A DNA stretch of 64,000 nucleotides from NCBI GenBank assembly GCA_964187785.1, contig OZ076409.1:28832001-28896000 (forward strand). Direction: 5' to 3'. Under the pieces are notes generated by a model, which saw nothing but the letters and a program-made list of their open reading frames with translations, ran no database searches and was not told the origin of the DNA. The DNA is from Amphiscolops sp. MND2022. Its lineage: Eukaryota. This document shows, in pieces, positions 14,433 through 64,000 of this stretch (the first letter of the stretch is position 1; each line of letters begins with the position of its first letter). Position numbers and translations under genes: made by a program.

Positions 14433-17400
14433 GAGCTGGAGTTGTCTGGATTATTGCTGGAGACGAGTTACTGCTGTCAGTTTGCGGCTCGTGTATCCTC
14501 TGCTAATATCGCTGGTTTAGGCGATTTATTGGATGTCGTTCTCTCCCAGGAATTTGGTAAGTGCGCACTTCGTATATTGTTCTACTGTCAGTGGTATATC
14601 TAAGGCGTAAGGGAGAGTTTAGTCTTTCTTTCAAGTTTGCATTCTTTCAAGTTTAGTCCCGTAATGTTAGGGAGTGTCGGGCATAGCATTTTAAACAGGG
14701 CTTTCTCGTGTTTGTAGCTGAAGTCAACATGTCCGACGTGGTCAGTTATTTACGTCGCTTTCGTGCTTCGATAGCTGTTGGAACTGCTGAGGGTCCTGAG
14801 ACAGAGGCGGCGCCCATCCTTCGTCGACTGGATGCCTTTCTGACATCGCATCTTGGTAGGTGAATTCGCGGTTACTGTGAAGCTAGGTTATCTGCTGGGG
14901 GGGGATCTTTTGGTTCTTTTGCTGTTCAATACCAATGCATGCAGTTTATGGTTGCTGTTCTATAACCAGGTGACGATAGGTGCCTTCAGTCGTTGTGGGG
15001 CAATTCGTTCGAGCAGACGTCGTTGTGGGGCAATTCACGGACGTTTCGTCGTGTGGAACGGGAAATTCAGCAGTGGGTGAAGGCTGCAATTGAGTCTAGT
15101 TTGGGCCGGCTAGGGACACTGGGTGCTCTCGCTGTCGAGGATTTCCTGGGCAAGTTGAAGGAAGCGCTGCAAGAACTGGGTCAAGCTCCCGTCGTTCCCC
15201 GTGGTGGTGAGACTTCTTCTCTACCACGTTCTGTATCTGGGAGCATCTCTGGTGTGGACTATCGTCGTGCGGCAGTGGAGTCTGATGTGCCGTCTGAGTT
15301 TGGAGAAAAAAGCGTCGTTCCTTCTGGGGGGACTTCGTCTGCTGTTGCCTCCACATCAAAGCCTGGTAGGAACTCTCAAAAGATCGTGTGAGGGGTTTTA
15401 GTTTTAAGTGGTAAAAAAATGTATATAACGTACTACTAATGATTAAGGACAAACACTTTTTTTGAAGGTTTTTAAGGTTTTTTGGTTTTGCTTGGATAGT
15501 GGTGCTATGTGAGTTGTGTTGTGTGTTAGCAGGACGGAAGCGTGCTATCAAAACGCTGAAACCATCATTCTTCGTTTCTGGGGTCGTGGGGACCTTCGTT
15601 GGTTTCCCCTGAAACAAACGTGTGGTGGATGGGTTCGCAAGGTGTCGTCTGTGCCGTGTTGATTTAAGTATTGCCGGACGCGGGCTACACAACTTGTGGG
15701 AACATTGGAAGGGGCGAGAGCATACTCGTCTTGAGCAGCGCTTCCGCATCATGTCTAATAGGCCTCTATTGGACAAGTCCTGTAGGCCCATGTCATTGGA
15801 TGAAGACCGGAGAATTCGGGCAGCCAGAGTGTCGGAGCCACCTGTCATTCTGGAGTCAGAAGAGAAGCTGACTGTGGAAGAGCGGATTGCAGTCAAAATT
15901 GAAGAGGAGGCAGCTGGTTCGAAACCCGAGTTGTCGGAGTCCAGTGCTTCATACCTCTGGCTATGCTGCTTTATCAATAACTTTGTTGAACTGAAGGACC
16001 TTTCAAGCGTTGTGCGGTTCATGGAATTGTGGTCCAGTAGCATGCGGGGCGAGCTGGTTTTCACTGAGAGAGTGCTATCATACCCGAAATGTCAGGTAAT
16101 ACATGTTTGGTTCGTCTTTTTTTGTGTTCGTGAATTTTGGTTTTTGTCTGCTAGTTCGTGTATGTAGTTGCGTACTGTTTTCGTTGGCATTTGTATTATG
16201 AGCAGGGGATGCTGTACTTGTTGAGAAGTGTCACTGTTGTATGTTTGTTGTAGAGTCTTGTATTATACGGCCTGTATCCATTTGTCATGGAGAAGCTGAG
16301 CGATCTACTCTCTGCTGGGGCGCGGTTTGGTCTGCACGTCCGCACCGATGGGTCGTTGAAGCGAGTGGATTGCCACATTTTTGACGCTTTGACAGTCAAG
16401 ATGGTTGTGCTAGCTGCTATTCCTGGGGTTGGTGAGTGGGAACACTCACTACTCAAGATCGTTGTCTCTGTTCTGGCCTGTGTGGAGTCTCATGCGGGTG
16501 TGTGTGCTGTGAGTGTGGGGGAGAATCTGCGTCTTGGGCGTGCGTTAGCTAGCATCGCACACCCAACCATGCCTTTGGTTACTCGTCGTCTCGATGTGGA
16601 CTGGCTGAAGGATTTGCTGCGGCGCACGTTTCTGCAAGAATTGAGTGGACTGGAACCTTTCTGCGTGTTGGAGTATTTCCGGTTCCGCTTAGCTGCCGTC
16701 ATCGGTGGTTCGTCGTTTGACAATATGCCTAGGCTTCGTGAGGTAATTGATTTTAAGTTTGTTAGCGCATTTTTTTCGGGACTGGTGTGAGTATGTGTGG
16801 TAATGTGTGGTCGTAGTATGCTTTGTTCTAACTCGGTGCTGATTCTGTTTTAGTTCGTCCGTGGTGTTGCTGCGCGTTTCCAGGAGTTGTCGGCTCTGTG
16901 CACCGAACTTGTGGAGCGATGGGATGACCTCGGTGCCTACTTTGGTGTCCACCGGTCAAATACTGTGTCCGAAACGCGGAATATAGCCAGTATGGAAACT
17001 CAAGTCTTCAACGATGCTTTGTCGAGGCCGCGATTTGCAGTTTTGAAATTTCTGGCAGAGACAGGTCAGTATAAGAGTTTTGAGTGTTTCTTGTGTCCGG
17101 GTGTGTCTGTACTAGTTTTGTTGTATTTGTTGATTTGGGTGTTATCGACGTCTGAGTTGCTAGGGTGTGTAGTTTTTCGACATGTTGGTTGTGAATCGCC
17201 TGTGTGTTTTATTTGTTGCAAAGTGTCCTCGTTTGTGTTCTGCTGGGCGAGATCGGAACTTGTGGTTCGAGCGGGAGTTGGCTGTTTTCCTTCGAGAGTT
17301 ATTGTGTCTGGTTGTCGAACCCTCACCACCTGGTTGTCGTTACCACCTGATTTTGAAGTCCTCGCCGTGTTGAAGTTGCGACTGGGCGAGAGTAAGCCTG

Positions 17401-18505
17401 TTGACAAGGCCCGGTTTCAAGTGCTGTTCGGCCAGTATTTCCGCTTCGACGTGGTCAGCCAGAAGCCTTTCTTTTATAAAGAAGTGCAAAATTTCCTCAG
17501 GACTGTGTGCGAGGCTTGTATTGGCGATTATGACCAAGGGTGGGTTAAGCACCTAAGCTTGTTGCCGCTGGGTCCTTATGCTATTCAGTCGGTGTCAATG
17601 GACCGGCTGACGGACATCTTGTGGGTACGCTTTCTGTCCTCAGTTTTGGAGATCTATGCAGAGGGAGACCATGGTGCCATCATCTTACAGCAGTATCGCG
17701 AGGTAGTCAACTACTTCAAGCGTCGATGGGAGTTATTGAGGGAGTCGTTGGGAGTCCAATGCCAGTTATTGACGATGCCATGTCTTTGTGGTTGTCATAT
17801 CATTCGTGGGACCGGTGCCAAGAATTCCGGGGCATTGTGGAGATTCTTTTTGTGGGAATGCTCCATGATTCGTATGCTGCTGATTTTCAAGATGTAGGAG
17901 GCACGGCTCTCGATGACAGTATCATGCTGTCAAGTTTGAACATTATTCGAAGCTGGATGTCGAGTGGTTTTGGCGGGCACTCTCGTCGCTCGATGATTGG
18001 TTTCGTTAGACACTGTAGCACTACAGACATGCAGGTTTCGCGGTTAACCGATGAAGGCAGGGCTATTCCCTGTGACCAATTGGTTAAGAGGGGGATTGAC
18101 GAACTACTTGGGCGCTGTATCACTGTTCTGGAGTCGACTGGTGGTCTACTTTCTCGCCCTGCCATTGACGATTATATGTCTGCTGTTTGTAATCAGTTGC
18201 GGACAATGGAGTCGAGTCCAACTGCTCTCCGTCGGAGTCCTGTCAAATCAAGGCGTTTGCAGCTCAAGCGCCGAAATTACAATCTGAGGTCGTAATGTCA
18301 TCAGCAGGTCCGAGTGCGTCAGCTCCGAAGCGCAAAGCGGTCAGTAGGGCGTCAGGGGGCAATCACGGACAGAGGAAAGCCGGGCAAGAAGGGGAAGCTC
18401 ACTCTGGCTACCTTTGAAACTGAAACTGTACAAGCCAGCAGGCGGGCTTTTTCACTAGAAGAAAGCAGTAACGAGGGCGGTTCTAGCCGTTCTACAGAGT
18501 ATTAG
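14433..18505 (+). pseudogene. Spliced hAT-transposase-derived gene (~1080 aa, 5'-truncated); this copy has 2 in-frame stops and 1 frameshift
   Basis: Phase-consistent GT-AG exons at 14433-14556, 14718-14855, 14970-15365, 15530-16095, 16254-16742, 16854-17064 and 17173-18505. Motifs CRLC-x16-H-x5-H, PKCQSLVLYGLYPFVMEKL, ARFQELSALCTELVERWDDLGAYF and FYKEVQNFL. Stops at 15610 and 18293, frameshift near 17750. Confidence 0.7.
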
Positions 18506-20392: not shown

Positions 20393-21992
20393 TTATAGGT
20401 TTCTGTTTTTCAGAAGTAACTGTTGAAGTGAAGGCGTTCCATGTAATTGGTGCATTAAGAAATCAGGGTACGTGGTAGGTTTTGGATTGTGTCTGAGCCC
20501 GTATCGAGACATGGTCTGTCGTGATGGCGCTGGAGGGCGGTCATTTGTTTGGTGTTCATTGTTGTTTGTGTCAGAATTGTTCATGCTAGCGTTATCCGGT
20601 TGTGGTTCTTGTGTTTCAGCTTGGCTTTCAGGTATGGAAATGTTTTGATCAGATTCTATGTTTTGCCGTTCGTAGTAGATCATTCCATGGTCTGCGTGTA
20701 ACTCTTCGAAGTTCGATTGTTCAGGTATTACTTGTTGTGGTTGTTCATGGACATTATCGGGTAGGTGATTGTCAAATAACTCCTGTTCGTTGAGGGCGTC
20801 GGGATCTTCGAAGTATTGTGATGCATTGTCTTGAATGTCTTCGATTGGTGCGTTTGGCGTGAATGGGCGAAGCCTCATTCTGTGAACGCAGTGGGTGCGA
20901 AGAGTGCCAATCTTACGTATGATGTAATTTGAATTTGACAAGACTTTGACCATTTTGTATGGGCCTTCCCACTTGAATTCCTTGAATGGATTTTTTTCAG
21001 ATTGCTGAGACAGTCTTTTGTTTAGCAGAAAGGTGAAATCATTTTCTTTCAGAGGTGAAGCTTGCGCTTTTCGGTCGTAGTAATTCTTGTATTTGTGAAA
21101 GGCTTCGATTATGTTGTCATGTGTTTGTTGGAATTTTTGTTCATGTTATCTAGTATTCCAGTGACGTCAGTAGTGTTACGTTGTTCAGCTAATGGATTGC
21201 CAAATTTGACGTCAAGGGCATTGAACGGAACACGTCCGTGGAAAATTTCAGTGGGTGTGCATCGAATAGCTTGGTGGTAGGTTGTGTTATGGGCCATTAC
21301 GGCCATGTTGACGTATTTGTGCCATTGTGGTGAATCAGCTGAGATGTTGATTTTGAGGATTTGTTTCAGTTTTTGATGGGAACGTTCAACCATCCCAATC
21401 GTTTGTGCGTAATTTACAGAGGCATGTTCGATTTTTATACTGGCAGACTCCATCAGGGAGTTGAGCAGTTGAGATGTGAATGTCGTTTCCTTATCAGTTA
21501 AGATTGTCTTGGGTACATACGAGTGTTGCGTAAAGATTTGCATGAGTGCATCCACGACCGACTTTGTGTCTGGTTTACGGATTGGTATTGCGAAGAGTTA
21601 CCTAGAAAAGTAGTCGCATGCAGTGAGTATGTGTGTGAATCCGTTGGAAGGTGGGAGTTCACCGACTAAGTCAATTTCTAGTATGTCTTCTGATCCGTTG
21701 CAGGGGTAGTATATTTGTTGAAGTGGTGGTGTGATTGCAGCTTTTCGGCTTGGTTTTGAGCGGATGCAGTCCTGGCAGTTCGAGACGTACTGCAGTACCA
21801 GTTCAGAGAGGTTTGGTGAGTAGTACCTTTTACGTAGTTCATGGAGCATTTTGTTACAACCAGGGTGACCTTGCAGAGGGTCATCGTGCAGGGATTGAAT
21901 GATTTTTCGAATGGTTTCAGGGGGAGTGACAATTTGTTTACACTTAATTTTACCTGTACCATCAAAAAAATCCTGTACAAAACGTTGTTCAC
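20393..21992 (-). pseudogene. Gypsy integrase, frameshifted
   Basis: GHPG…CQDC zinc-binding motif, EIDLVG, LTDKE, GMVER, TPTEIFHGR and a W-EGPYK-like C-terminal module. Confidence 0.9.
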
Positions 21993-22110
21993 TACTTCAA
22001 GTCTTTTCTTGTTTTTGACTAGTTTTTGGAAAACTGACTTTCAAAGTTCACATGATTAGGAAGGGTTTCCTTTTGGTTCAAAACTCTAATCATGCGTTGG
22101 ATGTCAAGGT

Positions 22111-22900
22111 TTACGAGTTGATCCTGGATGATTTGAAACTGGGGCATACCTGGTTTACCACGTTGTCATAAAGCTTTCGCCTGAATCGGGTGAACGTCAT
22201 CTCGTCGTGTTGCCCTGTGATTATGGGTGTGATTTGATGACGGATGGTTTCTATTCTCTCGAGAAATTGTCCACTCGATTCGTTGCTGCACATGGGGACC
22301 TGGTCCAGGATGGTGTTGATGGTTTCATTTTGTTTGGTGGTGGTAGTGTGTTGGTCATCAGGTATGTATTCTTCTTCTTCGTCCTGCTTGGGTGTTCTTG
22401 ATGCCAGGTCGATCTCGACGTGGAAGACTGGTATCTCGTCGTTGAGTTTGAGGTGGATTCTTTCCTCTGGTCGTATGTCAAGACGAGACAGGTAGTCTGC
22501 AGCAGGGTTCTCAGTTCCCGGAACATGGGCAAGTACGAATTCGAATTGAGCGTCTGATCGCAGTAATTCCATAGCTTCGGGGGAATCCGTTTAGACTGAA
22601 AGAATCGGGTCAGTGCTTTATTGTCCGTCATTACTATTGTTGGTTTTTTGACCCCCAGAGTATGTGTGCGAATTCGTCGAATGCGAAATGCATCGCCAGG
22701 AATTCCTTTGCGTACATTGTTAGGGACATTTGGCCCTCCGTGAATCGTTGGGATCCAAATGATACTGGAGCGTACGTCTTCAGTGGTCCATCGTTTGTTT
22801 CGGTATAGTCTTCTATCAGGAGGACATATCCTGCCGCATGCTCGCTGGCGTCGCACATTATAACAAGCTGTTTATCGGGTAACGGCAGACGCAGCGAAAG
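22111..22900 (-). pseudogene. Gypsy RNase H and linker, frameshifted
   Basis: CDASEHAAGYVL, YAKEFLAM, MTDNKAL and NPAADYLSR. Confidence 0.9.
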
Positions 22901-22909
22901 CTTCGCAGC

Positions 22910-24043
22910 TTAGGCAAGATTTTCCTTAATCTCGAAGATGATGTCCTTTCGTTGCTGGGTCAACTGGAATTTGACGTCTTTTTGGAGTAGTTTGTTCAGT
23001 GGGGTGAGTTTTTCTGCTATGCGTGGTATGTACTGCCTGTAGAACTGGACAAACCCGATGTACCTTTGGAGGGATTTGATCGATGTGGGCAATTTGATCT
23101 TCTTGAGGAAGTCGTCGATTTTGTCTTCAAGTGGGGCGACACCCTTTGATGTGATGCTTCTCCCGAGGAAATCAATTTGTGGGTGGCCAAACGCACATTT
23201 TGGCATCGACAATTTCAGTCCTGCTTTTTGGATTTGTTGAAACACGGCTTCAATGTTTGACAGTAGCTCATCTACAGTGTGGGCAGCAATTCCAATGTCG
23301 TCGACATATTGGGCACATTTATCCGCTTTCACCAGTGCATCAACGTATTCTCGCACCGTGCTGTTGAATGCTGATAGGGATCGGTTGAGTCCTTGTGCCA
23401 GTCGTAGATAAGCAAAAGTTCGACTTCCAAAATTGAATGCCAAGAGTTGTATGGATTGTTCATCCGCCATCTGCAAACAGTGGTACGCCTTCGAACAATC
23501 TACCTTGCAGAAGTACTTCTTCCCTGCCATGTGCTGGGCGGCGTCGGCGATGGTGGTGACTGGATGATTATGTTGGTTGTAATCATTTTTCAAGAGGTGA
23601 TTGATTCTGGGCAGGTCTACAAGGATGCGAAGTTTCCCATTGGGTTTGCGCTGAGCAAATATTGGTGAGGAATACTTGCTGTACGGCAACGTCGTGATGA
23701 TCCCGTACTCTTGCATCAGTGCTAGTTCGACGAGCAGGTCATCTTTGAGGTTGGTGGGTGTAGGTAAGCTCTGCGCGTAGACTGGTTCATCATGCTTCGG
23801 AGTGAGTTTGATTTTGAAGTCAGTATTGATGCCTATGTCGAGGCGGTGTCTGGCGAATACATTGTTGTACTTCACAAGGAGGTTCTCAATCCGTTGTCGT
23901 TCGTGCTCATTCAGGATTGAGTTTTCCCATTTGAAGTTGGCAAGGAACTCCTTGCGCTGTTGGTCGTCTGCTGTTGGGTCCAGTTTCTCTTCTTCACGGA
24001 GTTTAGTGATTTCGTCATATATCCGCCTTTCAATGCGGTTCAC
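22910..24043 (-). CDS. Gypsy reverse transcriptase
   Basis: YSSPIF…KPNGKLRILVD, QGL, YVDD and LQRYIGFVQFYR. Confidence 0.95.
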   Translation of the reverse strand: MNRIERRIYDEITKLREEEKLDPTADDQQRKEFLANFKWENSILNEHERQRIENLLVKYNNVFARHRLDIGINTDFKIKLTPKHDEPVYAQSLPTPTNLKDDLLVELALMQEYGIITTLPYSKYSSPIFAQRKPNGKLRILVDLPRINHLLKNDYNQHNHPVTTIADAAQHMAGKKYFCKVDCSKAYHCLQMADEQSIQLLAFNFGSRTFAYLRLAQGLNRSLSAFNSTVREYVDALVKADKCAQYVDDIGIAAHTVDELLSNIEAVFQQIQKAGLKLSMPKCAFGHPQIDFLGRSITSKGVAPLEDKIDDFLKKIKLPTSIKSLQRYIGFVQFYRQYIPRIAEKLTPLNKLLQKDVKFQLTQQRKDIIFEIKENLA

Positions 24044-24106
24044 CTTGGACGGGTCATCACATGTCTCCGGAGTTGGGTACCATCTGCGTTTGGTTTCAGT
24101 GCCGGG

Positions 24107-25072
24107 TTACTGGAACAGCTGGTTCAGTACGTTGTTGGCTTCGTCCGGGTATTTGGTTATTAGTGTCAATTGTTCGTTTGACATCGGTTGTAGGTTTTTT
24201 GCTTGGTTGGGAGTCCTTATCTTGAAGGTGGCCACTGTCGTGTTCGGGTTGAGGGTAATTGTATGGCAGGTGAGGTTGGTGATCTGGACATGGCTTTTCT
24301 TCTCAGTGATTTGCGTTAGGGCGGAGGACACCAGTAATTGTGTCTTCCTTTCAAAGGCAGGAAAGATTTCCACTGTGCCCTGGATTGTCCCGAGGTCCCT
24401 TTCTGCTAGGACGGTGACAATGATTTGGTGGTCCGGTTGTATGACCGTTTTCTGTGTCGTTCGTAGTTCGATCATCTGGATTTTGTATCGTCCTCTTTCT
24501 GGTTTTAGTTGCAGGGTAATGTCCGGGAACTTGACTACGTTGTTGGCAAAGTCAAGTGTCACTGAATACTTTTTGAAGAATGACAATCCGATCAAGATGT
24601 TACCCATGGTTGGAAGAATCATGAAGGTTTCCTCGAATACTTTACCTCCGATGACGAAGCGAAGTAGTACCTGTTTCCGGACCGGGACGATGCTTCCGTT
24701 TGCGATTTGGACTTTGAAGTCCGGTGCTGGGTACTCTTCGAGAAGTGCGGCTGGGTGTGCAGACAGGATTCGTCTGAGTTCGTCCTCTGACATGGCACTT
24801 CTTATTGCTCCTGTGTCGAGGAGTCCGTGGTTCTCGTATTCTCGGAATTGCAATGGGACGTACAACATCTTGTCCTTTTTGTTTAATTGGAGTGTTGCTG
24901 TTAACACCTGGATCGCCACGTCTTTCTTTCGGTTCATTGTTTTCCTTGTACAGTCAGTCGCTGTAGTCGAGTTAGAGTGCTGTTTGTCTTCTGTCGTTTG
25001 TAAGTTCACATCCGTTGGTTCGGAGGGAGGGTTCGCTTTGTTTTTGGATGTTTCGTGGGTAGTTGTAGTCAT
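24107..25072 (-). CDS. Gypsy aspartic protease and spacer domain
   Basis: LLDTGA catalytic motif, IANG flap and ILIGLSFF. Confidence 0.9.
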   Translation of the reverse strand: MTTTTHETSKNKANPPSEPTDVNLQTTEDKQHSNSTTATDCTRKTMNRKKDVAIQVLTATLQLNKKDKMLYVPLQFREYENHGLLDTGAIRSAMSEDELRRILSAHPAALLEEYPAPDFKVQIANGSIVPVRKQVLLRFVIGGKVFEETFMILPTMGNILIGLSFFKKYSVTLDFANNVVKFPDITLQLKPERGRYKIQMIELRTTQKTVIQPDHQIIVTVLAERDLGTIQGTVEIFPAFERKTQLLVSSALTQITEKKSHVQITNLTCHTITLNPNTTVATFKIRTPNQAKNLQPMSNEQLTLITKYPDEANNVLNQLFQ

Positions 25073-25203: not shown

Positions 25204-26390
25204 AGCTGGCTGGATGATGCTTCTGTGAATTCCTGTTGGTAGTAGTCGTCACTGGTTTGCTGTTGTTGGTCCCCTGGTGCAAGGTCGTTCATTTCATTTC
25301 CTGGGTAGGGGTTGTTGTGTGCTCTTCGGAAGTCACGTCGGAAGTCCCTGTTTTCAGTTGTGGTTTGCCTATTGTATGGCACGCTTCCGTAGGCGGAAGT
25401 TTGGGGTATTCTGTAACAGCAGTCTTTTGCGGAGTGACCTGTGTAACTGCAAATTTGGCAGACCAGTTTGGCATTGTATTTTGGTTGTGTTTCTGCGTTG
25501 TTGTTTTGCTGTTCGGGCTTTTTCTGTGCTTGTGAGTTGTTGTTGCCCGCTGCTTCGTCACGCAGTCGTTTTCGGCACTCAGCCTATTTGTGTCCGTAAA
25601 TTGCTCAGTATCTGCAATTGCCATCGAATTTCTTTTTGATTGTTGGTCGTTCATTTTCGTTTCTTTTCTGAACAACTGGCTTGTTTGGGACTTCTTGTGT
25701 CTGGATAGCCTGGTTGACCGGTTGGAGGAGTTGTTGATTTGGTAGTAACTGGGCATATTGGCATCTTCTCTGGACGAATGTTTTGATGTCTTCAATGCTG
25801 GCATTGTGTTTTCCTGCAATTGCCAGTTCGTTTTGGAGCTGGATCGGTAATTTGGCAAACAGGAAGGTCTGGACAATTTCCTGTGCCTTTTCGCCGTAGG
25901 CTTGTTTGGCAATCTTTTTGTAATTGGCGAGGAAGGTACTGAATGACTCGGTGGTCGGATCGTATCGTAGCTGGTCGAATTTGAACTTCGAGACTTCTGA
26001 GAGTTCTTCCTTGGCGTATTCTTTTTTGAATGCCGTCAGTATATCTCTCAGTGTCGTTTCTGTTGTGATTGTTAAGGTTTGCCAAAACTCAATTGCGTCA
26101 TGCCTGAGAAGACTCTGAAAGTAGTTGAGCTTTTGTTCTTCAGTGAGTTTGTGGGCATGTGGTCGTAAGTGGTTGAGCAATAAATGCTCGAATTCCTTGT
26201 ATTTGTCTCGATTTCCCTTGAATAGAGGTACTTGGGTCTGCAGGATTTTTGGTTGAGTCAAGTTTTCCCCCATTGTTTTGCGGAGATGGTGGATTTCCGT
26301 CATCACATCTGCTATCTGCGGAATACTTTCGTCACTCCTTGGTGTTCCGCTGGGTGGTGTTGTTCGAGATCCTGGTCGTCGTGGGTTCGG

Positions 26391-26404
26391 GACTCCTGTC
26401 ACCA
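26391..26404 (-). promoter_or_regulatory. Primer-binding site (tRNA-Leu-like) inside the gag ORF
   Basis: TGGTGACAGGAGTC directly after …CCGACA. The same TGGTGACAGGAGT follows the proven LTR end at 34828. Confidence 0.75.
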
Positions 26405-27528
26405 TGTCGGAACGACTGTTAGCACTTGTAGTCGCTGTGTTTAGTCTGTTCCTTTCTCCATTAACGGAGGCAAACTGATTGGTTAATGTAAGGACTATGT
26501 TGGTAAGGTCTCCGATTTGTCTATTTATCTCATTAAATCGTTGATCAATGCTATAGTTATTACTATTTTGACGTCTAGTTAATACGTCGTCAGAGTCAAG
26601 GTCTACGATTTGCTCTCTGGATAAGAGATCAGGGAAACTGGATTCGCTTTCATTATCGCTTGATCTGTCCATATTTTCAGTTTCTACTTGTCTATTTTGA
26701 CTACTTTGAGATCTATTAGTTACCATGAAAAGTCTGAAAGTTTTGAGTTGAATTGAAATGTGTTAATGTTATGATAAGGATTGATGACTTGTAAGCAAGG
26801 TAGTAGGCAACTTGTTCTATCAAAAGTTACAACTCGTGAGTGTTTCCGGTTTTACCCGATTGTGTAATTATAAAAGTGTGTTAGCACCTTTCCTTTTAGC
26901 CAATGACATTCGATCTACTAATTGCTCTTTAATTGCACTTGACGACTGGTGGTTACAGTCGTGGCGGGTGATAATCGGCGTTTAGTTATTCATGTTTGAT
27001 CTAGTATGACCGCAAGCACCAGTCATTTTAGCACGCAATTGTCTCAATTACTTCTTAAACTGAAGCTTTACTACCGTGTATTCTTATCATCATGGTGACT
27101 GATTCAATTATCGTTTGGAGGTTAATTACTAAATGGTATTGTACAAATTGCTGATATAAATGAATGAAATGTTGTTGTTATGCATGATCGAGTATTCTGG
27201 TAATACTCTACATGTAATATAAGAAATGTATGAAGAATGATTAAATGATGAACTATCACGATAGCTGATGACTGATTGTTCCAGTCTTATATGTGGGAAT
27301 CATTTATGATGACTGAATATTTCAGTCTTGGTTTCTAAACGATGCACAATTACATGAATGAATTTAGTATTGATAACTTTTAGTTCCAGTTGTTATATTT
27401 TCAACTGTATTGTTCGGGGAATAAATTACTGCAATGTATTTTCATGATGATCTGTATTTTAGGGAGTTTGATGTATGAATTAATATTTTAGAGTTCGTTT
27501 AATTCCTTCATGCTTGGCGGGCATGACG
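26405..27528 (-). repeat. 5' LTR (~1124 bp) of the large Gypsy element
   Basis: Starts CGTCATGCC (the related solo LTR starts TGTCATGCC) and ends CCGACA before the PBS. Host duplicate block begins at 27529. Confidence 0.7.
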
Positions 27529-30950: not shown

Positions 30951-33900
30951 ACACCTCCACAGTTAACTCCTACAATCTCTATAAAAATAATCGATATCGT
31001 CAAAATTTTATCAATTTATTCATATAATCCAGAGTTTTCTGTACGATTAATATCGTTTCAGACCATGTAATACGGATTTTGTTTCATTTTGTGTTCGGCT
31101 GATGGAGGAAAAGAGATCACTAGAATCTCCTCGCCATCTCGCCTAAGCTTCCGCACCCTGATACAAAAAATGCCGCGTTAGTGTTCCAATAATCACTTAT
31201 CTATAGTTTCCTTAGTCATTGTCGGCTTGTCGGTCCGCAAAGTCGGGCATCGGGTATGCAGAAGATGTTAAATGATTGCGGTCATCATTGGTCATGAGTT
31301 GCAAAGTTTTTCACGTTTTTCGAAATCGTTTCCGTTTTTTCGTAGTCACTGACAATGGTGAGTCCTCCCACATTAAGGGTATTTCACGGGTTGAAAAGAC
31401 ATTATCAAGTTGTTCGAACTAGACTTCGGTATTACTTTTCTCATTGTCATTTCTTGATATGTTGAGTTTTTAGCTGTTCAGAAAACGTTATATCCATGAG
31501 TTTTTTAAGCAACTCCGCTAATTCTTTTCTCTGGCTACTCTGCCGATGCCAGAAACTAGGATCATTCAGGTAAAAAGATAGACAACTCATTTTCTTATGC
31601 GTGTAATTAGGCTTCCGTTAAGCGGGCTTATGCCATTGGAAGTCTTTTGTGTTGGTTTTGTGTTTTGTAGATTTTTTTTCGTTGAAATTATTCTGTATGT
31701 TATTCAACAGATATATTATGATAATAATTATTATTAATATTCAGAAAAGACAAATATGAATTGATCTGTGAATCATTGAAAACACTTTCTTAAAGTAAAA
31801 TTTAATTTCAGGTGCCACGGTCACGGCAAAGCCTTTTATAGTCTGACTATAGTATGCCTTCTCACAAATGATGAATTTTTTCAAGATGATCACGCTATAT
31901 TTAGATTATGATCATAATATGATTGATCCATGGCAAGGCATAGAACATGTATGTAAGTCACTCTATAAAGTCTTCATGAACAATTTATAGGCGGAATTTT
32001 TCCTTAAATGTAAATCTGAGTGTGATGCTCAGTGACAATATGTTTTCCACCGGAGTGTGTATACCCTACAGAAACAGATGCAATCACTAGCTCCCAAAAC
32101 TTTACTGTTTTTAGAAGGTAGGTATTTTGTCATTTAATTTTCTTCAGCGCATCTTGTTATATATATGGAATAGTAACCCATACCTTAGTAGGAAAGACAC
32201 GTATATTCAAATCTCACAAACTTGGAAGCAAAAACATTCGCCAAGGACATGTCATCATTTGCTGGAAGCATTCGTTTTTCAAAGGTCATGCAACCTAAAG
32301 TGAATTGATTTTTTGCGATTCTTCTAAAGGTCAAACCAATCGTGATTTGCGTGAGGTCAAACCAATCGTCAAAGCAAAGGTCAAACCAATCGTGAACCAA
32401 CTAATGATAGATAGATGAAATATTTCATCTAATTATAGTGCTTTGTTTACAAACAAAAGACTCCTGAGTAGTCGAAAGGGTTTGGGTGTGTTCTAGTTTT
32501 CCTAGTTGAATTTGCTCTCATTGTTTGTCACCGAGCCAAGCAACGTTGAAAAATCACCCTATCAGTCATCAAAATTCTTCAAGTTGAAGGTCTGCAAGTT
32601 CAAAGTCTTCAAGTGCAAAGTCGGACATCAGCTTTACTCGAAGATATTAACGGATATTTTCAGTCTTCAGCGGTGTTTTATTTGTCGAACTTGTCTGTGA
32701 ATCTTTTCAAATTGAGCCCTGAGCCTCATTACGTAATCTTGGCTCAAAAAATTGTGAGATTGGTAAATTTCTGATATCAGCAACTAACGGAAATTCAACT
32801 AGAGAAGCAACAAAATTACTTATTTTAAAAGAAAATCTAGCCAAGCTATACTACTTCTGTCCGTAACAAATTTAACTGTGACGAAATTCTCCAATCGCGT
32901 TCACGAATTCAAAATCAAATAGCAAAATTTAACAAACATTGATCAGAAAAAATGCAGTCTGAAGCAAAAATACTGCATGAAAATTTTTAGACACATCGGA
33001 CAACTTGACACAGGTGTCGGAACACGTCAAGTAGCACACTCCCGTTTGATGAAATTTTCATTGAAAATGTTGACCGGCACCACGTTAGGCGCATGTAACA
33101 CGTGAATGATAGGCGATTGAAAAATAACGGCGGTGTTCGGTGGCGAAGACTAGAACTTTAAAATTTTCGAAAAAAAAACAGTCGAAAAAAATCAACAGGT
33201 GTCACAGTCCGCGCCCGGACTGGATTGAATTAAAAGCAAACTAAAACTAATTTACGTCACCGCTTCGCCAATACGATTGAATTTGCGTCGCGACTACGCT
33301 ACGTCACAGCCTCGTCTACGCATACCATAAAATCATTCCGATTATCCGCCTATACTAATAGCTTACTAGAAATCATTCCAATTTTCCGCCAACGTGACGT
33401 CACAGCGCTCGTAGCTAACTAGCTAAAGTCTAATTCTAAATACTTGTCAGCATCACGTCAAACTAGTCAAAATCTCATTTCTGCCAAGAAAACTCGTCAA
33501 CATGACGTTGACAAGTTTATGAAGCTTAAATTCTGCCAAGAAAACGCGTCAACATGACGTTGACAAGTTTATGAAATTAGACGTAATTGAGTATTTTCCA
33601 TCAAAATAGCTGTTTCAATCCGTTCAAAATACCAAATTTACGTCCACTATAATGGCGGACTAAGTCTAATAAAAAGTTACGTCCACACTACGTCCCAAAG
33701 TTATGAAATTAGGCGTTTTAATCAGTATTGAATTTAAAAGAAGCCTTATTTTAATACGGTAAAACTAATCGAAGCTAGAATATGAATCAACGTCAACACT
33801 ACGTCGCAATTCAAGTAACCAAGCCAAATTTTGAATCTACGTCAACGCTACGTCAACTAATATACTAGAGTTGAGAAAACACATTTCTACGTCAGTATTG

Positions 33901-34596
33901 CGTCGACTAAGATTGAATTCGAACGGAATATGGTATTTAGGCCAGGATTTTTCTGACTAACTAAAAATAAGAGTGTTTTAACACTATTTAAATTGGAGAG
34001 TAACAGTTCATTTTCAATTTGTGTTAATAAAGTGCAGTTTATGCAGGCTTTTTAAATGTATGATTTGATTACCTAATTTAAAAATTTCATTGACTGTTTG
34101 ACGTTGTCACGTCGTCTTCTATTGTTGCTCAAAGGTGTTGCTCCTAACTTTAATCAGATAAATATTTATCAATTGTTGAAATATATAATTGTTTAGCCTC
34201 ATGTAAATCAGTCACTCTCTTAGCATCACCAAATTGCCTAAATCAAGATAATTAGTCATAATTTTCTTCAAGTGGGAATTCAAAATCAGGTATTAGTTGT
34301 TCACGTCAGCGTCATCTCCGCGTCGGTTTCTTACGAACCAAAGCAGAAAAACGGGGAAGTATTTCCGGTTTGACAGACTGAAGTAATATCTACTTCCTGC
34401 TTGGGAGGAAACAAAAGGACGCCGGAATGAAATGATATGATCATGATTGATGTCTAATACTAGATTAGAATTGCCGTGTCTTAAAAATTGACGAAATGCT
34501 GACGAAGATCAAAGTTTTACCGCAAAATTACAGGAAGTGACTAATATCTCGATGGAAATTAAAGTACGCGAGTATGAACAGATGATGCTAGGAGGG

Positions 34597-34630
34597 TATA
34601 TATAGCTTGTACCTGTAAACTTATTCATTC
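34597..34630 (+). promoter_or_regulatory. Candidate LTR core promoter (TATA and Inr)
   Basis: TATATATA at 34597 and TCATTC about 28 nt downstream; present in all three LTR copies. Confidence 0.5.
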
Positions 34631-35619
34631 AATTTCTGATTCAATCTGCTGTCTTTTATCAAATTCTACTTTGTTTTGTTAAAACAATTACTCTGCAAAC
34701 TTCAATTCAAAATTGATAAATCCGAAAATCTTTTCATCAAGAGAAGCTAGAAAAGAAGAATGTCCTTCAAAAAGCAACAAAAATGATCAAAAATGTACAG
34801 AACAACGACCCTAACAGGAGTCATAACATGGTGACAGGAGTTTTGGACCTTTCAACAAATGTACCCAAGAAAACCTCAGCTTAAACTACCGTCCAAAGAG
34901 CGTCCCTGCACATTGCGGAAACTCTTCGCCCCAGAAACGAAGACGAACATACACTAATTGAGCAACGCAACCCAAACGGCAAATGGAGACTACTTGTTGA
35001 CCGACTGATGATAAACGAGTTAAACTTCGACGACTACACCAACAACACTCAACCCGTCACCGTCAGTACATCGTCAGAAGCAGTTCAACACCTGCCGAAG
35101 ACATCGTTTACCACAACACGAGGTTCCAAAAGCTGGCAACATACCCCTGGGGCGTTACCTTTGCCCAGAGTCGGATGAATTAGCTCACATCAGTAAGTAT
35201 AAAAAAAAGAAAAAAGAAAAACTAGACTCTTCCTGAGGCCGAGATGTGCGTTCGAAAGATGACAAAGACGTAGTCACTGAAGCACACATTCCCGAATCGA
35301 CTAGTCAGAAAATCTAAGCTATGAACATACAAAAGCAGAAAAGGCCTATCTGCAGTTTCGTATGATTCAAAAAAGCTTAATGGAACGGGGAATATTACAA
35401 ACCTAAGGGTTGTTGAATAACCAGCGCGTCGGCGTCACTGATACGCACATTTCCCTCAGAGAACAAAAATGAGTTTAATTATCACTTTGCAGATCATGAT
35501 CTTTTAAGACCAAATTGATCTGAAAATGACCGGGTTATAACAGTCCATATACAAAGACGACGCAAGATTGACGTCGCAAATGACCGGGTTATAACAACCC
35601 ATATACAAAGACGACGCAG

Positions 35620-37894
35620 TATCCGCCTATACTAATAGCTTACTAGAAATCATTCCAATTTTCCGCCAACGTGACGTCACAGCGCTCGTAGCTAACTAGC
35701 TAAAGTCTAATTCTAAATACTTGTCAGCATCACGTCAAACTAGTCAAAATCTCATTTCTGCCAAGAAAACTCGTCAACATGACGTTGACAAGTTTATGAA
35801 GCTTAAATTCTGCCAAGAAAACGCGTCAACATGACGTTGACAAGTTTATGAAATTAGACGTAATTGAGTATTTTCCATCAAAATAGCTGTTTCAATCCAT
35901 TCAAAATACCAAATTTACGTCCAGTATAATGGCGGACTAAGTCTAATAAAAAGTTACGTCCACACTACGTCCCAAAGTTATGAAATTAGGCGTTTTAATC
36001 AGTATTGAATTTAAAAGAAGCCTTATTTTAATACGGTAAAACTAATCGAAGCTAGAATATGAATCAACGTCAACACTACGTCGCAATTCAAGTAACCAAG
36101 CCAAATTTTGAATCTACGTCAACGCTACGTCAACTAATATACTAGAGTTGAGAAAACACATTTCTACGTCAGTATTGCGTCGACTAAGATTGAATTCGAA
36201 CGGAATATGGTATTTAGGCCAGGATTTTTCTGACTAACTAAAAATAAGAGTGTTTTAACACTATTTAAATTGGAGACTAACAGTTCATTTTCAATTTGTG
36301 TTAATAAAGTGCAGTTTATGCAGGCTTTTTAAATGTATGATTTGATTACCTAATTTAAAAATTTCATTGACTGTTTGACGTTGTCACGTCGTCTTCTATT
36401 GTTGCTCAAAGGTGTTGCTCCTAACTTTAATCAGATAAATATTTATCAATTGTTGAAATATATAATTGTTTAGCCTCATGTAAATCAGTCACTCTCTTAG
36501 CATCACCAAATTGCCTAAATCAAGATAATTAGTCATAATTTTCTTCAAGTGGGAATTCAAAATCAGGTATTAGTTGTTCACGTCAGCGTCATCTCCGCGT
36601 CGGTTTCTTACGAACCAAAGCAGAAAAACGGGGAAGTATTTCCGGTTTGACAGACTGAAGTAATATCTACTTCCTGCTTGGGAGGAAACAAAAGGACGCC
36701 GGAATGAAATGATATGATCATGATTGATGTCTAATACTAGATTAGAATTGCCGTGTCTTAAAAATTGACGAAATGCTGACGAAGATCAAAGTTTTACCGC
36801 AAAATTACAGGAAGTGACTAATATCTCGATGGAAATTAAAGTACGCGAGTATGAACAGATGATGCTAGGAGGGTATATATAGCTTGTACCTGTAAACTTA
36901 TTCATTCAATTTCTGATTCAATCTGCTGTCTTTTATCAAATTCTACTTTGTTTTGTTAAAACAATTACTCTGCAAACTTCAATTCAAAATTGATAAATCC
37001 GAAAATCTTTTCATCAAGAGAAGCTAGAAAAGAAGAATGTCCTTCAAAAAGCAACAAAAATGATCAAAAATGTACAGAACAACGACCCTAACAGGAGTCA
37101 TAACATGGTGACAGGAGTTTTGGACCTTTCAACAAATGTACCCAAGAAAACCTCAGCTTAAACTACCGTCCAAAGAGCGTCCCTGCACATTGCGGAAACT
37201 CTTCGCCCCAGAAACGAAGACGAACATACACTAATTGAGCAACGCAACCCAAACGGCAAATGGAGACTACTTGTTGACCGACTGATGATAAACGAGTTAA
37301 ACTTCGACGACTACACCAACAACACTCAACCCGTCACCGTCAGTACATCGTCAGAAGCAGTTCAACACCTGCCGAAGACATCGTTTACCACAACACGAGG
37401 TTCCAAAAGCTGGCAACATACCCCTGGGGCGTTACCTTTGCCCAGAGTCGGATGAATTAGCTCACATCAGTAAGTATAAAAAAAAAAGAAAAACTAGACT
37501 CTTCCTGAGGCCGAGATGTGCGTTCGAAAGATGACAAAGACGTAGTCACTGAAGCACACATTCCCGAATCGACTAGTCAGAAAATCTAAGCTATGAACAT
37601 ACAAAAGCAGAAAAGGCCTATCTGCAGTTTCGTATGATTCAAAAAAGCTTAATGGAACGGGGAATATTACAAACCTAAGGGTTGTTGAATAACCAGCGCG
37701 TCGGCGTCACTGATACGCACATTTCCCTCAGAGAACAAAAATGAGTCTAATTATCACTTTGCAGATCATGATCTTTTAAGACCAAATTGATCTGAAAATG
37801 ACCGGGTTATAACAGTCCATATACAAAGGCGACGCAAGATTGACGTCGCAAATGACCGGGTTATAACAACCCATATACAAAGACGACGCAGTAT
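35620..37894 (+). repeat. Tandem duplicate of 33343-35622 (5'-truncated LTR, PBS and internal region)
   Basis: Offset of 2277 bp with a 3-bp TAT microhomology at the junction. Confidence 0.9.
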
Positions 37895-40800
37895 TGACGT
37901 CGCAAATGACCAGGGTTATAACAGCCCAATACTGATACGACGTCATTATGACGTCAACAGTGACCGCAAAAAAATGAAGTTGGCTTATCGTTAACAAAAT
38001 TGACGTCATCAAAACGGTGACAAAACCTAAAGTTGGCTAATTACCAACGAAATTGACGTCGGCATAACGTCGACACAAAGGTTATCAGGGTTAAGAATTA
38101 ATCCTATAATCTATAATGACGTCATCAAAACGGTGACAACTTCAAAAGTTAGCTATGCTAACGAACTTGACGTCAGCAAAACGTTGACAACTTTGGTCAA
38201 ACGAATTAATTTAATTCGTGGCCAATAAAAACGTGACGTTGGCAAAACGTCAACACCTGGGACTACAAAGGAATTGAAAGACAGCTTCTACCACCTCCCA
38301 AAAAGTGCTATACCGAACTACAGAGTGGTACCGGAAATGTCACATTCCTCTGGGAAAGCGTACAACCAAAACAATCCTCTCTTCAGTTTCGACAACCCCA
38401 CGAGATATCTTCGTCCCATGAGAGTGGCCCTGTCACAGTCCGCGCCCGGCCTGGATTGTGGTTGCCAAGAGGCGCAGTTTGGACGTGATCATGGATGCAT
38501 TATGAAAACAGTTAGACTATCTTATTAAACTGAAATAAACTGTGACAAGTTAAAACCATCAAAATCTAAATTATGAATGATTTCAGAACCTAAAAACATT
38601 CCGAGATAATTTCACACATTTCCGGACATGCGTTGTGATGACAGTAGAATTTTAATCATTTTCCTGCAAAATACAACCGAGACATATCATTGGAATTACT
38701 TGTCGCAAAAAGAACGAAACTACGTCAAAATGTAGGACTAAAGAAAACAAAAACAATTTGATAACCAATTAATTGACGGTACAAAACTTCCCTAACATCA
38801 TCTCTTTCATTTTATCAAGCCCCCGAGAACCATTCGTCCTATGAGAGTGGCCCTGTCACAGTCCGCGCCCGGACTGGATTGAATTAAAAGCAAACTAAAA
38901 CTAATTTACGTCACCGCTTCGCCAATACGATTGAATTTGCGTCGCGACTACGCTACGTCACAGCCTCGTCTACGCATACCATAAAATCATTCCGATTATC
39001 CGCCTATACTAATAGCTTACTAGAAATCATTCCAATTTTCCGCCAACGTGACGTCACAGCGCTCGTAGCTAACTAGCTAAAGTCTAATTCTAAATACTTG
39101 TCAGCATCACGTCAAACTAGTCAAAATCTCATTTCTGCCAAGAAAACTCGTCAACATGACGTTGACAAGTTTATGAAGCTTAAATTCTGCCAAGAAAACG
39201 CGTCAACATGACGTTGACAAGTTTATGAAATTAGACGTAATTGAGTATTTTCCATCAAAATAGCTGTTTCAATCCATTCAAAATACCAAATTTACGTCCA
39301 CTATAATGGCGGACTAAGTCTAATAAAAAGTTACGTCCACACTACGTCCCAAAGTTATGAAATTAGGCGTTTTAATCAGTATTGAATTTAAAAGAAGCCT
39401 TATTTTAATACGGTAAAACTAATCGAAGCTAGAATATGAATCAACGTCAACACTACGTCGCAATTCAAGTAACCAAGCCAAATTTTGAATCTACGTCAAC
39501 GCTACGTCAACTAATATACTAGAGTTGAGAAAACACATTTCTACGTCAGTATTGCGTCGACTAAGATTGAATTCGAACGGAATATGGTATTTAGGCCAGG
39601 ATTTTTCTGACTAACTAAAAATAAGAGTGTTTTAACACTATTTAAATTGGAGACTAACAGTTCATTTTCAATTTGTGTTAATAAAGTGCAGTTTATGCAG
39701 GCTTTTTAAATGTATGATTTGATTACCTAATTTAAAAATTTCATTGACTGTTTGACGTTGTCACGTCGTCTTCTATTGTTGCTCAAAGGTGTTGCTCCTA
39801 ACTTTAATCAGATAAATATTTATCAATTGTTGAAATATATAATTGTTTAGCCTCATGTAAATCAGTCACTCTCTTAGCATCACCAAATTGCCTAAATCAA
39901 GATAATTAGTCATAATTTTCTTCAAGTGGGAATTCAAAATCAGGTATTAGTTATTCACGTCAGCGTCATCTCCGCGTCGGTTTCTTACGAACCAAAGCAG
40001 AAAAACGGGGAAGTATTTCCGGTTTGACAGACTGAAGTAATATCTACTTCCTGCTTGGGAGGAAACAAAAGGACGCCGGAATGAAATGATATGATCATGA
40101 TTGATGTCTAATACTAGATTAGAATTGCCGTGTCTTAAAAATTGACGAAATGCTGACGAAGATCAAAGTTTTACCGCAAAATTACAGGAAGTGACTAATA
40201 TCTCGATGGAAATTAAAGTACGCGAGTATGAACAGATGATGCTAGGAGGGTATATATAGCTTGTACCTGTAAACTTATTCATTCAATTTCTGATTCAATC
40301 TGCTGTCTTGTATCAAATTCTACTTTGTTTTGTTAAAACAATTACTCTGCAAACTTCAATTCAAAATTGATAAATCCGAAAATCTTTTCATCAAGAGAAG
40401 CTAGAAAAGAAGAATGTCCTTCAAAAAGCAACAAAAATGATCAAAAATGTACAGAACAACGACCCTAACAGGAGTCATAACAACAGGTTTTGTCTTTAGT
40501 CTTGTCCGGTTTTGCAAACGCACGAAAAAGTTTCTGGCTGAAGCAGGGACTCGAATGGTAAACGTTACAAATTAGTACGCTACAGCTTATAAAACTTATA
40601 AAATCTGTCAGTTCGTTATAAAAAAGGAGTCACTACTATAGTCTGCTCTTTTACTATACTCTACGAAAGCGCCGACTAAAAATGCGGAAGAAGACTTTTC
40701 GCGGAACACTGCGACACGTATTTCTCAATTGTACTCTTTTTTTTCTTTTTCTTTGGAGCTGCTAGCAACTTTTACTCCGATTGAGTTTTCCCTGTAATTT

Positions 40801-47570: not shown

Positions 47571-49531
47571 GTGCAATTTGTAAATATTATACAGACGAAT
47601 AACAATGAAGCTTTAAAAGGGCACAAACGGTGCTTGTCAAAAGCATGATATTTCAATACGCCATCAATTAGTGCGGTGTCGCACGGGAAGCTTTTTGAGT
47701 GTGTGGTATGAGAACTTCGATACAGGGCCTCAAACTGGCAAGTATCAGGCGTCCAATAGTCTTTCCGCGTTGCTTAATCGATCCCGCTCGCTCTACAAGG
47801 CAGACAGGAAACAAGGATTATTCTGTTATTGTCCCGATCAGTTCATTTATGAATAGGTTCAAAGAAAGATCTCTACTAGCAATGACAGTCTCTTTCTTAC
47901 TTCGTCTTTACGTGATAACGCTATTGCTTTCTTTTCAGGCCAATTCGAGGCATGAGAGACTTCTGAAACGGAGTAGTGTGCGTTGTTTCCCCGAGTGACT
48001 AGATAATTTCCAGAAATGACACAGGTTTGATTACATGTTTCTCTCGCGTCTTCTATCGTTATTTTATTATGAAATTGCCGCACTGCAATCTTTGAATCAC
48101 TTGCCACTCATGCCTCATCCTTCGTACTTGCACCTGCCTGTTCACACTTCGTACGTGAAAGTTATGTTTTTGTCTTATGTGAGTTGCTGCCTACCAATCG
48201 GCTACAATAGTGTTTTTGAGAACTCGCGACCGAAGGTAGGATGTGAATTCTAGATCCCGTCGCGTGCAGTGACTCCAAAACGTTCTGTGGACTTCAGCTG
48301 TTCTGTTTGTAGTTTCTGGTCAAAACCGTAGTCAGATTTTTGATCCTTCGTAATTTAAATTTCATGAGAGAGTGGTGTCGTTGCTGCTTGGAACTAGCTC
48401 TAATTAAGTGACGGGACATTGCTACAATCGCCAATGTTCAACTGTTTGCCAAGGTTGTTCTGATCGGAGTTTTGGAATGGCTATTGGAATTCATTGGGAA
48501 GAGGGTGTCAGAACGCGGTGACGTCATGAAGTCGTGGACGTGCTGGCCGTTCTCTTCCCTACTGTTCGTCACTTTCTTAGTAAGGGCTCTCACCATGCTT
48601 GTTAATTCTCCGATCCGTTTATTCATTTCTAGAAACCTTTACTCTATTATGAGTCTCTCATGATCTCTCTCCAGAGATCTCATTGTCTCTTCGTCCTTTC
48701 CGTTAAAATAATTACTCTGAGTAATGGTCAGCAACGTTAACATTATCGTCATCAACAGTAAACCTATCTACTTTTGGTTGTTCGGTTCGATTCTCTTTAT
48801 TAACTCGAGATCTAGTATTTACCATTGTTGAAAGAAGAGTTTGGTTTTTAGGTTGAATTAAGTTCCAAATGTAGAAATGTAATTTTACTACGTTGAAGGC
48901 AAAGAAAGAATTTTTATGTTGAGATTAAGCAGTACGTCTGAATATCACGGTAACAAATGGTCAACTGGTTGATTTCTATTTCGCAATAAAACCTTCGTAG
49001 TCTTCAGTCACACGTTAGCAACGCCTAATTGAGTGCGTCTACTTCTTCGGTATTACTGGTTAAGCCAGTAAATATCACTTCAAGGTGCGTTAGACGACTG
49101 GTTACTCCAGCCGTCGTTAATCCTGATCACAGCACTTTCGAACCTGTTATCACATTACTAATCTTTTCACTTTTTAGCACCGACTAAATTACGATTGAAG
49201 GTTGTGGTGGCGATTATGGCTACAAAACGTTTACATAATATGAATCAACGCACCAATTGCTGATGATGACTGAATCTTTTGGTTGTTAATTTGGATTTCT
49301 CCAAATGTATGAATCGACGCACTATATATGGATGGTTACTGCTTGTGGTAAATGTGAAAAGAGCAGTTAGACTAACATTGAACTGAAATGATATTAATTA
49401 CTAAGACCTGCTAAAATGCTAGAGCTAGATACATTATGATCAATCAGTTGCTCTTGCCTTTGTATTGAGATTAGTACGAAATTCATTCTTAATACTTCAC
49501 TTCTTCTTGCTTCGCATCGATACCCTTTACC

Positions 49532-51812: not shown

Positions 51813-51824
51813 ATCAAAATTGAA

Positions 51825-52904: not shown

Positions 52905-53000
52905 ATGAACTATAGCTTTTAGCTGTAGTATGGGCGACAGAACATTTTAGAAATTACGTTTACGGAGTAAAATTTCAAGTTATTTCAGATCATAAAGCGC

Positions 53001-63300: not shown

Positions 63301-64000
63301 GAAGGTGCAGGAGAAGCTGTGTGTGGAACCATTCAAAGACCCCCAAGAAGCCCTACAATATGCCATATCCTATGAAGAAGGCATAAAAAGACAAAGGTCT
63401 ATAGGGATAGGAGTGGCAGAAGGCTCGAAAGCAACAATAAAGACTGAACCAGTATGCGCTGTGGATAAGGTGAACAACCGAGAATGTTGTGGGGCAGGCA
63501 ATTTTACAACTGACCACATAAGGAGATGTCCAGCGACAAATCATAAATGTTAGTTCTGCAACATCATGGGACATCTGGAAAAGTGCTGCAGTCAGAAGTA
63601 TCCGGAGAGAGAAAAGCAAATGAAGCAGAGGATGCAAAATCGCAGAAAAGGATTTTCCCGGGTAAATTACATATCCGAAGAATCCGAAGAAGAACTGGAT
63701 CAAGACGAAATGGTTCTGCAGGTCGATGGGACGGCAGTGAAACCGTTCGAGATAGAAGGCTCGATGTGTGGCAACAAACTCAGAGCCATAATCGATACGG
63801 GGTCGCATGTCTCGATATTTGCGATAGACGAACTGAGAAGAATAATTGGAAAACGGTGGGTGGTCGTCAGAGACATGATAGATGGTGAAAGATATGTCGA
63901 CTTCAACCGACGCCCACTTCCGTTATTGGTATACATGTTTGTCAGCATCCAATTAGGAAAAACAAGAAAGTCAAAAGCAAGAGTGCTGGTGGCGAAGAAA
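60318..64000 (+). repeat. Near-identical duplicate of 47858-51608 (solo LTR half plus 5' part of the nested Gypsy)
   Basis: Same nesting, TSD and internal duplication. Differs by SNPs, an ~11-bp deletion and an ~56-bp LTR deletion. Confidence 0.95.

Follow-up and report, generated by a model that had tools for sequence, protein, structure and literature searches.

In Ty1 of Saccharomyces cerevisiae, GAG starts within the long terminal repeat (LTR), about 13 codons before the primer-binding site (PBS). PMC4974528 places the Ty1 PBS inside GAG, at RNA nucleotides 94-104, and the PBS segments of Ty3 at untranslated ends. Because of that position, fewer than about 31 codons can precede the PBS in Ty1, whereas 103-216 codons precede it in the lineage described here. 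Both have a PBS within the gag ORF and an ORF start in the LTR, the difference being that Ty1 is a copia-type element (Pseudoviridae) primed by initiator tRNA-Met, whereas the present lineage is gypsy-type and uses tRNA-Leu(CAG). With Ty3 and the animal gypsy elements (Metaviridae) the lineage shares TG...CA LTRs, a 5-bp target-site duplication (TSD), a PBS, a polypurine tract, a capsid with CCHC knuckles, and the order protease-RT-RNase H-integrase. The PBS of Ty3 is untranslated, however, whereas about 20-35% of Gag lies inside the LTR here.

Tor3b and Tor4b of Oikopleura and the errantiviruses, likewise gypsy elements of animals, have additional ORFs beyond pol, among them a sense env (PMC4402516), and a tRNA-Leu PBS is present in some errantivirus clades (PMC13524379). 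In contrast, no env domain was found in the scanned ORFs of the present lineage, and its long extra ORFs are antisense. In the passages of PMC4402516 and PMC13524379 consulted, a gag start in the LTR is not described for Tor3b/Tor4b or the errantiviruses, and in PMC11117352 it is pol, not gag, that overlaps an LTR. Full-text literature searches listed no gypsy elements in which so long a part of gag lies within the LTR; Repbase and most subscription journals lie outside this scope, and may record the layout. The layout is a much longer, gypsy-type form of the Ty1 principle, a principle that is already known, and the Ty1 precedent limits the surprise.

The gag reading frame of element A opens inside the LTR

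The window is a stretch of 64,000 nucleotides from Amphiscolops sp. MND2022 (contig OZ076409.1, positions 28,832,001 to 28,896,000). The copy of element A in the window has the following parts, where a slash marks the LTR end:

26405..27528, minus strand: 5' LTR, 1,124 bp, ending CCGACA, its first base unlike the TG of other copies; limits from 13 paired-LTR copies and TSDs
26727..26908, minus strand: ATG-free stretch before the gag start, the nearest upstream ATG being 183 nt off; likely transcription start and 5' leader
26406..26726, minus strand: 107 LTR-encoded Gag codons, with an MVxxRS start, a disordered acidic arm and one long helix
26463..26564, minus strand: predicted long helix, likely a coiled coil, approximately residues 55-88, from the model of a 91%-identical relative (P0121)
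26403..26408, minus strand: LTR end and junction GAC A/TG, the C of the CA end closing codon 107 and its A opening codon 108
26392..26404, minus strand: PBS, pairing over 13 nt with the 3' end of host tRNA-Leu(CAG), reading (M)-V-T-G-V
25746..26213, minus strand: capsid domain, approximately residues 172-327, entirely downstream of the junction; best match Arc capsid, E 3.5e-3
25605..26726, minus strand: gag ORF of the window copy, 373 aa, closed early by stops; about 512 aa in other subfamilies
20396..25072, minus strand: pol remnants in the order protease, RT, RNase H region, integrase, with several stops and frameshifts
15700..18295, plus strand: antisense ORF segments between pol and the missing 3' LTR

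This copy is degenerate, ending at 14433, about 0.9 kb short of the expected place of its 3' LTR; the LTR boundary was taken from other genomic copies. A search of the element's own genome with 26200-27520 listed 43 matches, many of them paired about 14 kb apart, with one member spanning the whole query and its partner stopping at query base 1116, which corresponds to 26405 in the window. Thirteen copies with both LTRs define an LTR of about 1,124 bp that runs from TGTCATG to CCGACA. The 3' LTR ends at the junction CA in twelve of them, the remaining copy being truncated, and a polypurine tract lies 5' of the 3' LTR in all thirteen. The TSDs are perfect 5-bp repeats in 11 of the 13 copies and match at 4/5 positions in one.

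Read on the minus strand, the junction is GAC (26408-26406, codon 107), A/TG (26405/26404-26403, codon 108), GTG ACA GGA GTC, and the gag translation over 26408-26391 is ...R-S-D-M-V-T-G-V.... The ORF opens at ATG 26726, which is LTR base 803, so that 322 nt of the frame lie inside the LTR, corresponding to 107 codons and the A of codon 108. The chance of a stop-free run of 107 codons from shuffled LTR bases is about 0.0005. The proposal of the initial annotation that gag starts about 107 codons inside the LTR is thus borne out by the 13 paired copies, which place the LTR at 27528-26405 and its end, at 26405, hence not upstream of 26726. The paired-LTR boundary and the continuous frame likewise uphold the proposal that the 3' part of the LTR, taken there as U5 but possibly in part R, the att end and the PBS all double as Gag coding sequence.

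A 1.4-kb repeat pair (12988-14432 and 27529-29162) was considered as the LTRs of this element and rejected, as it is duplicated flank and the true LTR starts at 27528. Element A is present minus its last 2 kb or so. The sequence on either side of it is directly duplicated over 1.4-1.6 kb at 99% identity, and in the right copy (27529-29162) an additional 190 bases or so make up a long inverted repeat. The duplicated flanks may reflect an aberrant insertion, a local duplication or an assembly artefact. Tandem or partly repeated family-A LTRs occur at G000:C10:20231465-20235100, C2:37.46 Mb and C3:67.83 Mb.

The primer-binding site

The frame passes through CA/TGGTGACAGGAGT, a 13-nt match to host tRNA-Leu(CAG) in which CA and TGG abut at the junction with zero spacer. 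The tRNA 3' end with its added CCA is complementary to 13 nt of the window PBS; in 55 of the 57 sampled junctions the complementarity extends over 12-13 nt, in agreement with the tRNA-Leu primer that had been suggested. A T-arm pattern search gave 914 genomic places ending CTCCTGTCA, and ARAGORN called tRNA-Leu(CAG) in two of ten such places that were fetched. The variant PBS TGGTGTCAGGAG was rejected as a separate type, as its 18 genomic matches against 7,527 are attributable to ordinary mutation. tRNA-Leu-like 3' ends also lie in a long tandem array, with a spacing of about 296 bp, at G000:C8:35.59-35.64 Mb; this array and the 914 matches may represent either a very large supply of primer tRNA genes or a tRNA-derived satellite.

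Related elements in the window

The window holds two further junctions that had been cited as parallels:

33200..40482, plus strand: element B, a non-autonomous relative with 1,629-bp LTRs, TSD ACAGG, the same PBS at 34829 and 37106, and a vestige of the frame
48506..55727, minus strand: solo LTR C of a related family, its TSD matching at 4/5 and its frame broken; element D (49344-55484) is inserted in the LTR

The LTR of element B resembles that of a coding family over about 370 nt (77-80%). The LTR end at 34828 is real, as shown by the TSD, but the frame there is a weaker example than had been claimed: a vestige of some 15-25 LTR codons that runs into a stop 18 codons beyond the junction. 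Element B is a non-coding derivative, and its loss of the frame is a useful control. It is also present in high copy (40 of 40 scored matches at 97-100%), and has a tandem LTR-internal-partial LTR-internal-LTR structure. For solo LTR C, the stated end at 48506 is real and the same as in most relatives, but the frame does not run intact to RSD, being interrupted by a stop at codon 38 and a frameshift. An element of 6.1 kb is nested in the LTR.

The nested element D (49344-55484, plus strand) has LTRs of about 189 bp, TSD CTGCT and the PBS TGGCGCTGCGAG. Its junction A/TG is the first Met of gag in 9/9 matching loci of 12 fetched, and a junction start of this kind suggests a route by which an arm could be recruited from the LTR. 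A segmental duplication (47858-51608 and 60318-64000, spaced 12.4 kb apart) takes in a portion of solo LTR C together with the first part of element D, and has an internal 0.8-kb tandem repeat.

Spread of the layout over the lineage

The junction motif CATGGTGACAGGAG occurs 7,527 times in the genome, as compared to a single occurrence of the reversed control. The first 57 motif matches on contig C1 were sampled, with a few probable non-elements kept in the counts. At least 100 open codons are found in the A/TG frame upstream of 42 of the 57 junctions and downstream of 41, whereas neither of the other two frames has at least 100 open codons at any of them. One alternative frame is shut by the PBS itself (TGG TGA), and the other is open there yet never used. 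Over the last 300 LTR bases, stop density is 0.011 in the A/TG frame versus 0.112 and 0.068 in the others, and 31 of 35 loci with at least 200 codons downstream also have at least 100 upstream.

The LTR arm is 103-216 codons long in 29 loci that have a Met no fewer than 95 codons upstream together with 200 codons downstream. By protein identity, these loci form 11 groups at the 80% level and 7 at the 60% level. The start-to-junction length is constant, at 106-107 codons, across subfamilies about 30% apart in DNA. When 10 kb of downstream sequence was fetched for 20 further same-PBS elements, a second LTR ending at the same CA was found in 17; the other three, from one family, had no partner LTR within 10 kb. 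Among 259 database relatives, 91 have the exact [DNHYS]MVTG motif, which in 77 of these lies at residue 90 or beyond. A gag frame that opens 100-200 codons inside the LTR is a trait of a very abundant gypsy-type lineage, and the open junctions and partner LTRs together confirm the lineage-wide architecture that had been proposed.

Selection on the LTR-encoded codons

For analysis of selection, 124 junction loci were collected, 68 of them with intact frames and 63 distinct; the pairs are phylogenetically non-independent and were chosen for intact frames. Between subfamilies, dN/dS of the LTR-encoded codons is 0.07-0.22 (18 disjoint pairs), and medians are 0.14-0.26 in every bin with dS above 0.05. 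The control consists of the two LTRs of one insertion, which diverge after insertion. Seven cross-subfamily pairs have 261 synonymous and 209 non-synonymous changes in the LTR codons (pN/pS 0.21), as opposed to 34 and 72 between the two LTRs of single insertions (pN/pS 0.55; Fisher p 1.4e-5). Separated by family, the control gives 17 to 51 for family A (pN/pS 0.78) and 17 to 21 for the other families (0.32), which were pre-chosen for intact frames and where the control is not fully neutral. In L013, one of the 13 control pairs of family A, the reading was shifted by one base; without this pair the figures are 15 to 47 (pN/pS 0.81).

In 15 pairs, 12 indels fall in the LTR frame versus 122 in the 400 nt upstream, with no significant enrichment of lengths in multiples of three (6/12 versus 28/122, p 0.07). 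Third positions account for 51-78% of the changes in codons 19-107. In codons 1-18 of family A their share is 0.41, a value similar to that of the leader (0.37-0.42) and without excess. These sequence comparisons show purifying selection on the LTR-encoded codons, and the codons are thus likely to be translated.

The extent of constraint is not uniform over Gag, as dN/dS in deep pairs is about 0.15 for the LTR part versus 0.04-0.05 for the capsid-side region. The faster evolution of the LTR part (about 0.15 versus 0.04) might indicate that the LTR frame is separate or non-translated, open by chance or through a constraint at the RNA level, with Gag made only from the junction ATG, and element D shows that a junction start is workable. 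However, third-position bias is strong in codons 19-107, dN/dS is far below 1 in at least five families, the stretch from ATG to capsid is stop-free, an ATG-free leader sits before the LTR ATG, and the frame has been lost in the non-autonomous element B, which needs no Gag. A start at the junction alone is therefore very improbable.

The leader and the translation start

The leader was analysed in 25 representatives, including five family-A copies. Together, the 120-nt stretches preceding the first Met contain 2 ATG versus 63 CAT trinucleotides (25 x 120 nt), with ATG at 1.7-2.9 per 100 nt elsewhere in the LTR. A TATA box lies 122-157 nt before the ATG in 11 of the 25; no conserved TATA box was found in the family-A leaders. 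The positions of AATAAA vary between copies, and none was assigned as a poly(A) signal. In family A, Met19 is a possible start because codons 1-18 lack a third-position excess, but relatives without Met19 still keep the MVxTRS start.

It is highly probable that this is a Ty3/gypsy-type lineage in which the gag frame opens in the LTR and translation starts at the LTR ATG. Transcription would begin about 100-120 nt before that ATG, as the ATG-poor leader suggests, and the capped leader of about 100-120 nt would be followed by the first AUG of the RNA, starting one full-length Gag. The frame opening inside the LTR runs through the LTR end and the tRNA-Leu primer site; the junction ATG would be an ordinary internal Met, and the LTR-coded 103-216 residues would form a matrix-like arm ahead of the capsid. 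As a by-product, each 3' and solo LTR would have a promoter, a start codon and an arm reading on into host DNA.

The junction ATG had also been proposed as the start of a second, shorter Gag. In such an arrangement the LTR ATG would start the full-length protein, and the junction ATG of an internally started RNA would start a capsid-nucleocapsid form, similar to Ty1i/p22. All families keep the junction ATG in frame, mostly flanked by a purine at -3 and G at +4; the capsid is wholly downstream of it, and in the unrelated element D it is the first Met of gag (all nine matching loci of the twelve fetched). There is also a precedent in Ty1, where Ty1i RNA gives rise to p22 (PMC4551931). However, conservation of the junction ATG is uninformative, because the CA end, the terminal inverted repeat (TGTC...GACA) and the CCA-complementary TGG dictate both its letters and its context; for instance, the G at -3 follows from the TGTC with which the LTR begins. 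In addition, 1-10 in-frame and 0-15 out-of-frame AUGs precede the junction ATG, and between the first ATG and the junction out-of-frame AUGs are present in 24 of the 25 representatives and in-frame AUGs in all 25. Leaky scanning to the junction is thus unlikely, and a second isoform would need its own transcript, as p22 does; no internal promoter for a shorter Gag was identified. With an ATG that is forced, and AUGs upstream in every representative, the second isoform is not supported, and its existence is unlikely.

The Gag arm and the other protein domains

With a single full-length Gag from the LTR ATG as the preferred reading, the LTR part would be an N-terminal arm. A single-sequence fold gave no usable structure (pLDDT 38). 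In a model from 39 natural relatives, residues 1-53 and 90-170 are mostly disordered, a confident helix spans approximately residues 55-88 (pLDDT about 90 over residues 61-80), and the capsid helices occupy residues 172-327. The capsid fold is closest to the Arc and HIV capsids (Arc E 3.5e-3, prob 1.0), with no match at E below 0.001. A basic N-terminus and a heptad-like helix are found in the LTR part of all families, and a Pfam search of the arm returned no family match. The arm may, as a guess from the model, be a matrix-like oligomerisation arm with a basic N-terminus, a disordered linker and a coiled-coil helix.

Pfam gives weak Retrotrans_gag and zf-CCHC matches, the gag matches of the window element lying past the junction; with its capsid fold, the Gag is of the capsid and zinc-knuckle type that Ty3/gypsy (Metaviridae type) requires. 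A protease (E 2e-4), RVT_1 (1e-19) and, further downstream, weak integrase-type matches follow the gypsy order, and RNase H was matched on close homologues. Ty3/gypsy features are found in the LTRs with TSDs, in the PBS and polypurine tract, and in the order of pol; integrase does not precede RT in element A, as it would in Ty1/copia. The nearest solved RTs, of foamy virus and Ty3, are distant.

No envelope Pfam domain was found in 19 downstream ORFs of related copies or in 4 ORFs of the window. Long antisense ORF segments lie between pol and the 3' LTR in 11 of 11 stretches (L198, L199, L202, L203, L205, L210, L211 and L216-L219). Some have a CxxC...H...H motif reminiscent of the BED fingers of hAT transposases, and searches of Pfam and the Atlas with the antisense ORFs gave nothing informative. 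In several families (L199, L202, L203, L205 and L211) the 3' LTR is immediately preceded by another sense ORF, which is 209-354 codons long and begins with an acidic segment; no Pfam match was found in the four that were scanned. In family A, a sense ORF of at least 200 aa after pol is absent from the three stretches read.

The PBS was also considered as a swap hotspot that shuffles the arm, an idea rejected because in 51 family-A copies the junction shows no dip (correlation 0.91), the actual dip lying some 390 nt into gag. One pair does fit it: its members differ at 47 of the last 300 LTR bases but at 2 of the first 300 bases of the internal region. When L097 is compared to L170 and L093, the last 650 LTR nt are strongly different and the internal region is about 99% identical; the switch point lies within about 40 nt of the PBS, making a recombinant Gag with arm and capsid of different origin.

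The 3' and solo LTRs

As had been suggested, the 3' and solo LTRs carry the same N-terminal Gag frame, which is open through the LTR end in 11 of 15 family-A LTRs without a downstream PBS. After insertion the frame decays near-neutrally, with a pN/pS of 0.78, 2 stops and 3 frameshifts in 13 pairs, and of the 9 family-C LTRs in which a start can be recognised only 2 are intact. Because the promoter, the start codon and the whole helix arm sit in the LTR, 3' and solo LTRs would be ready-made arm genes.

The arm might then also be made alone from these LTRs and interfere with particle assembly, as a self-encoded control of copy number. The model for a truncated Gag made by the element itself is Ty1 p22 and Drt2, and truncated Gags restrict Ty1 (PMC13709905). 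The open frames without a PBS, the predicted coiled-coil helix in an arm that has no capsid, and the thousands of LTRs in the genome are consistent with such a role. The near-neutral decay after insertion and the few intact family-C LTRs argue against it, as does the fact that the known restriction of Ty1 works via the C-terminal domain of the capsid and not an N-terminal arm. Moreover, p22 is a C-terminal piece from an internal transcript, whereas the LTRs here would give an N-terminal arm. Interference by the arm is thus improbable. It is an equally speculative notion that the thousands of 3' and solo LTRs serve as complete genes for a Gag arm that lacks the capsid and ends in a host-derived tail, such that the arm poisons or tunes assembly, the number of LTRs is a built-in gauge of copy number, and solo LTRs seed host coiled-coil proteins.

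Implications

Annotation tools and textbook schemes treat the LTR as non-coding and seek gag after the PBS, and by that approach 20-35% of Gag is lost in this lineage. The coding content partly explains the long LTRs of the lineage, and the junction has four jobs, as integrase end, primer site, start of reverse transcription and protein-coding sequence. Each solo LTR would represent a promoter, a start codon and 100-200 selected codons opening into host DNA, and the solo LTRs would be a testable source of truncated Gag or of new fusion genes.
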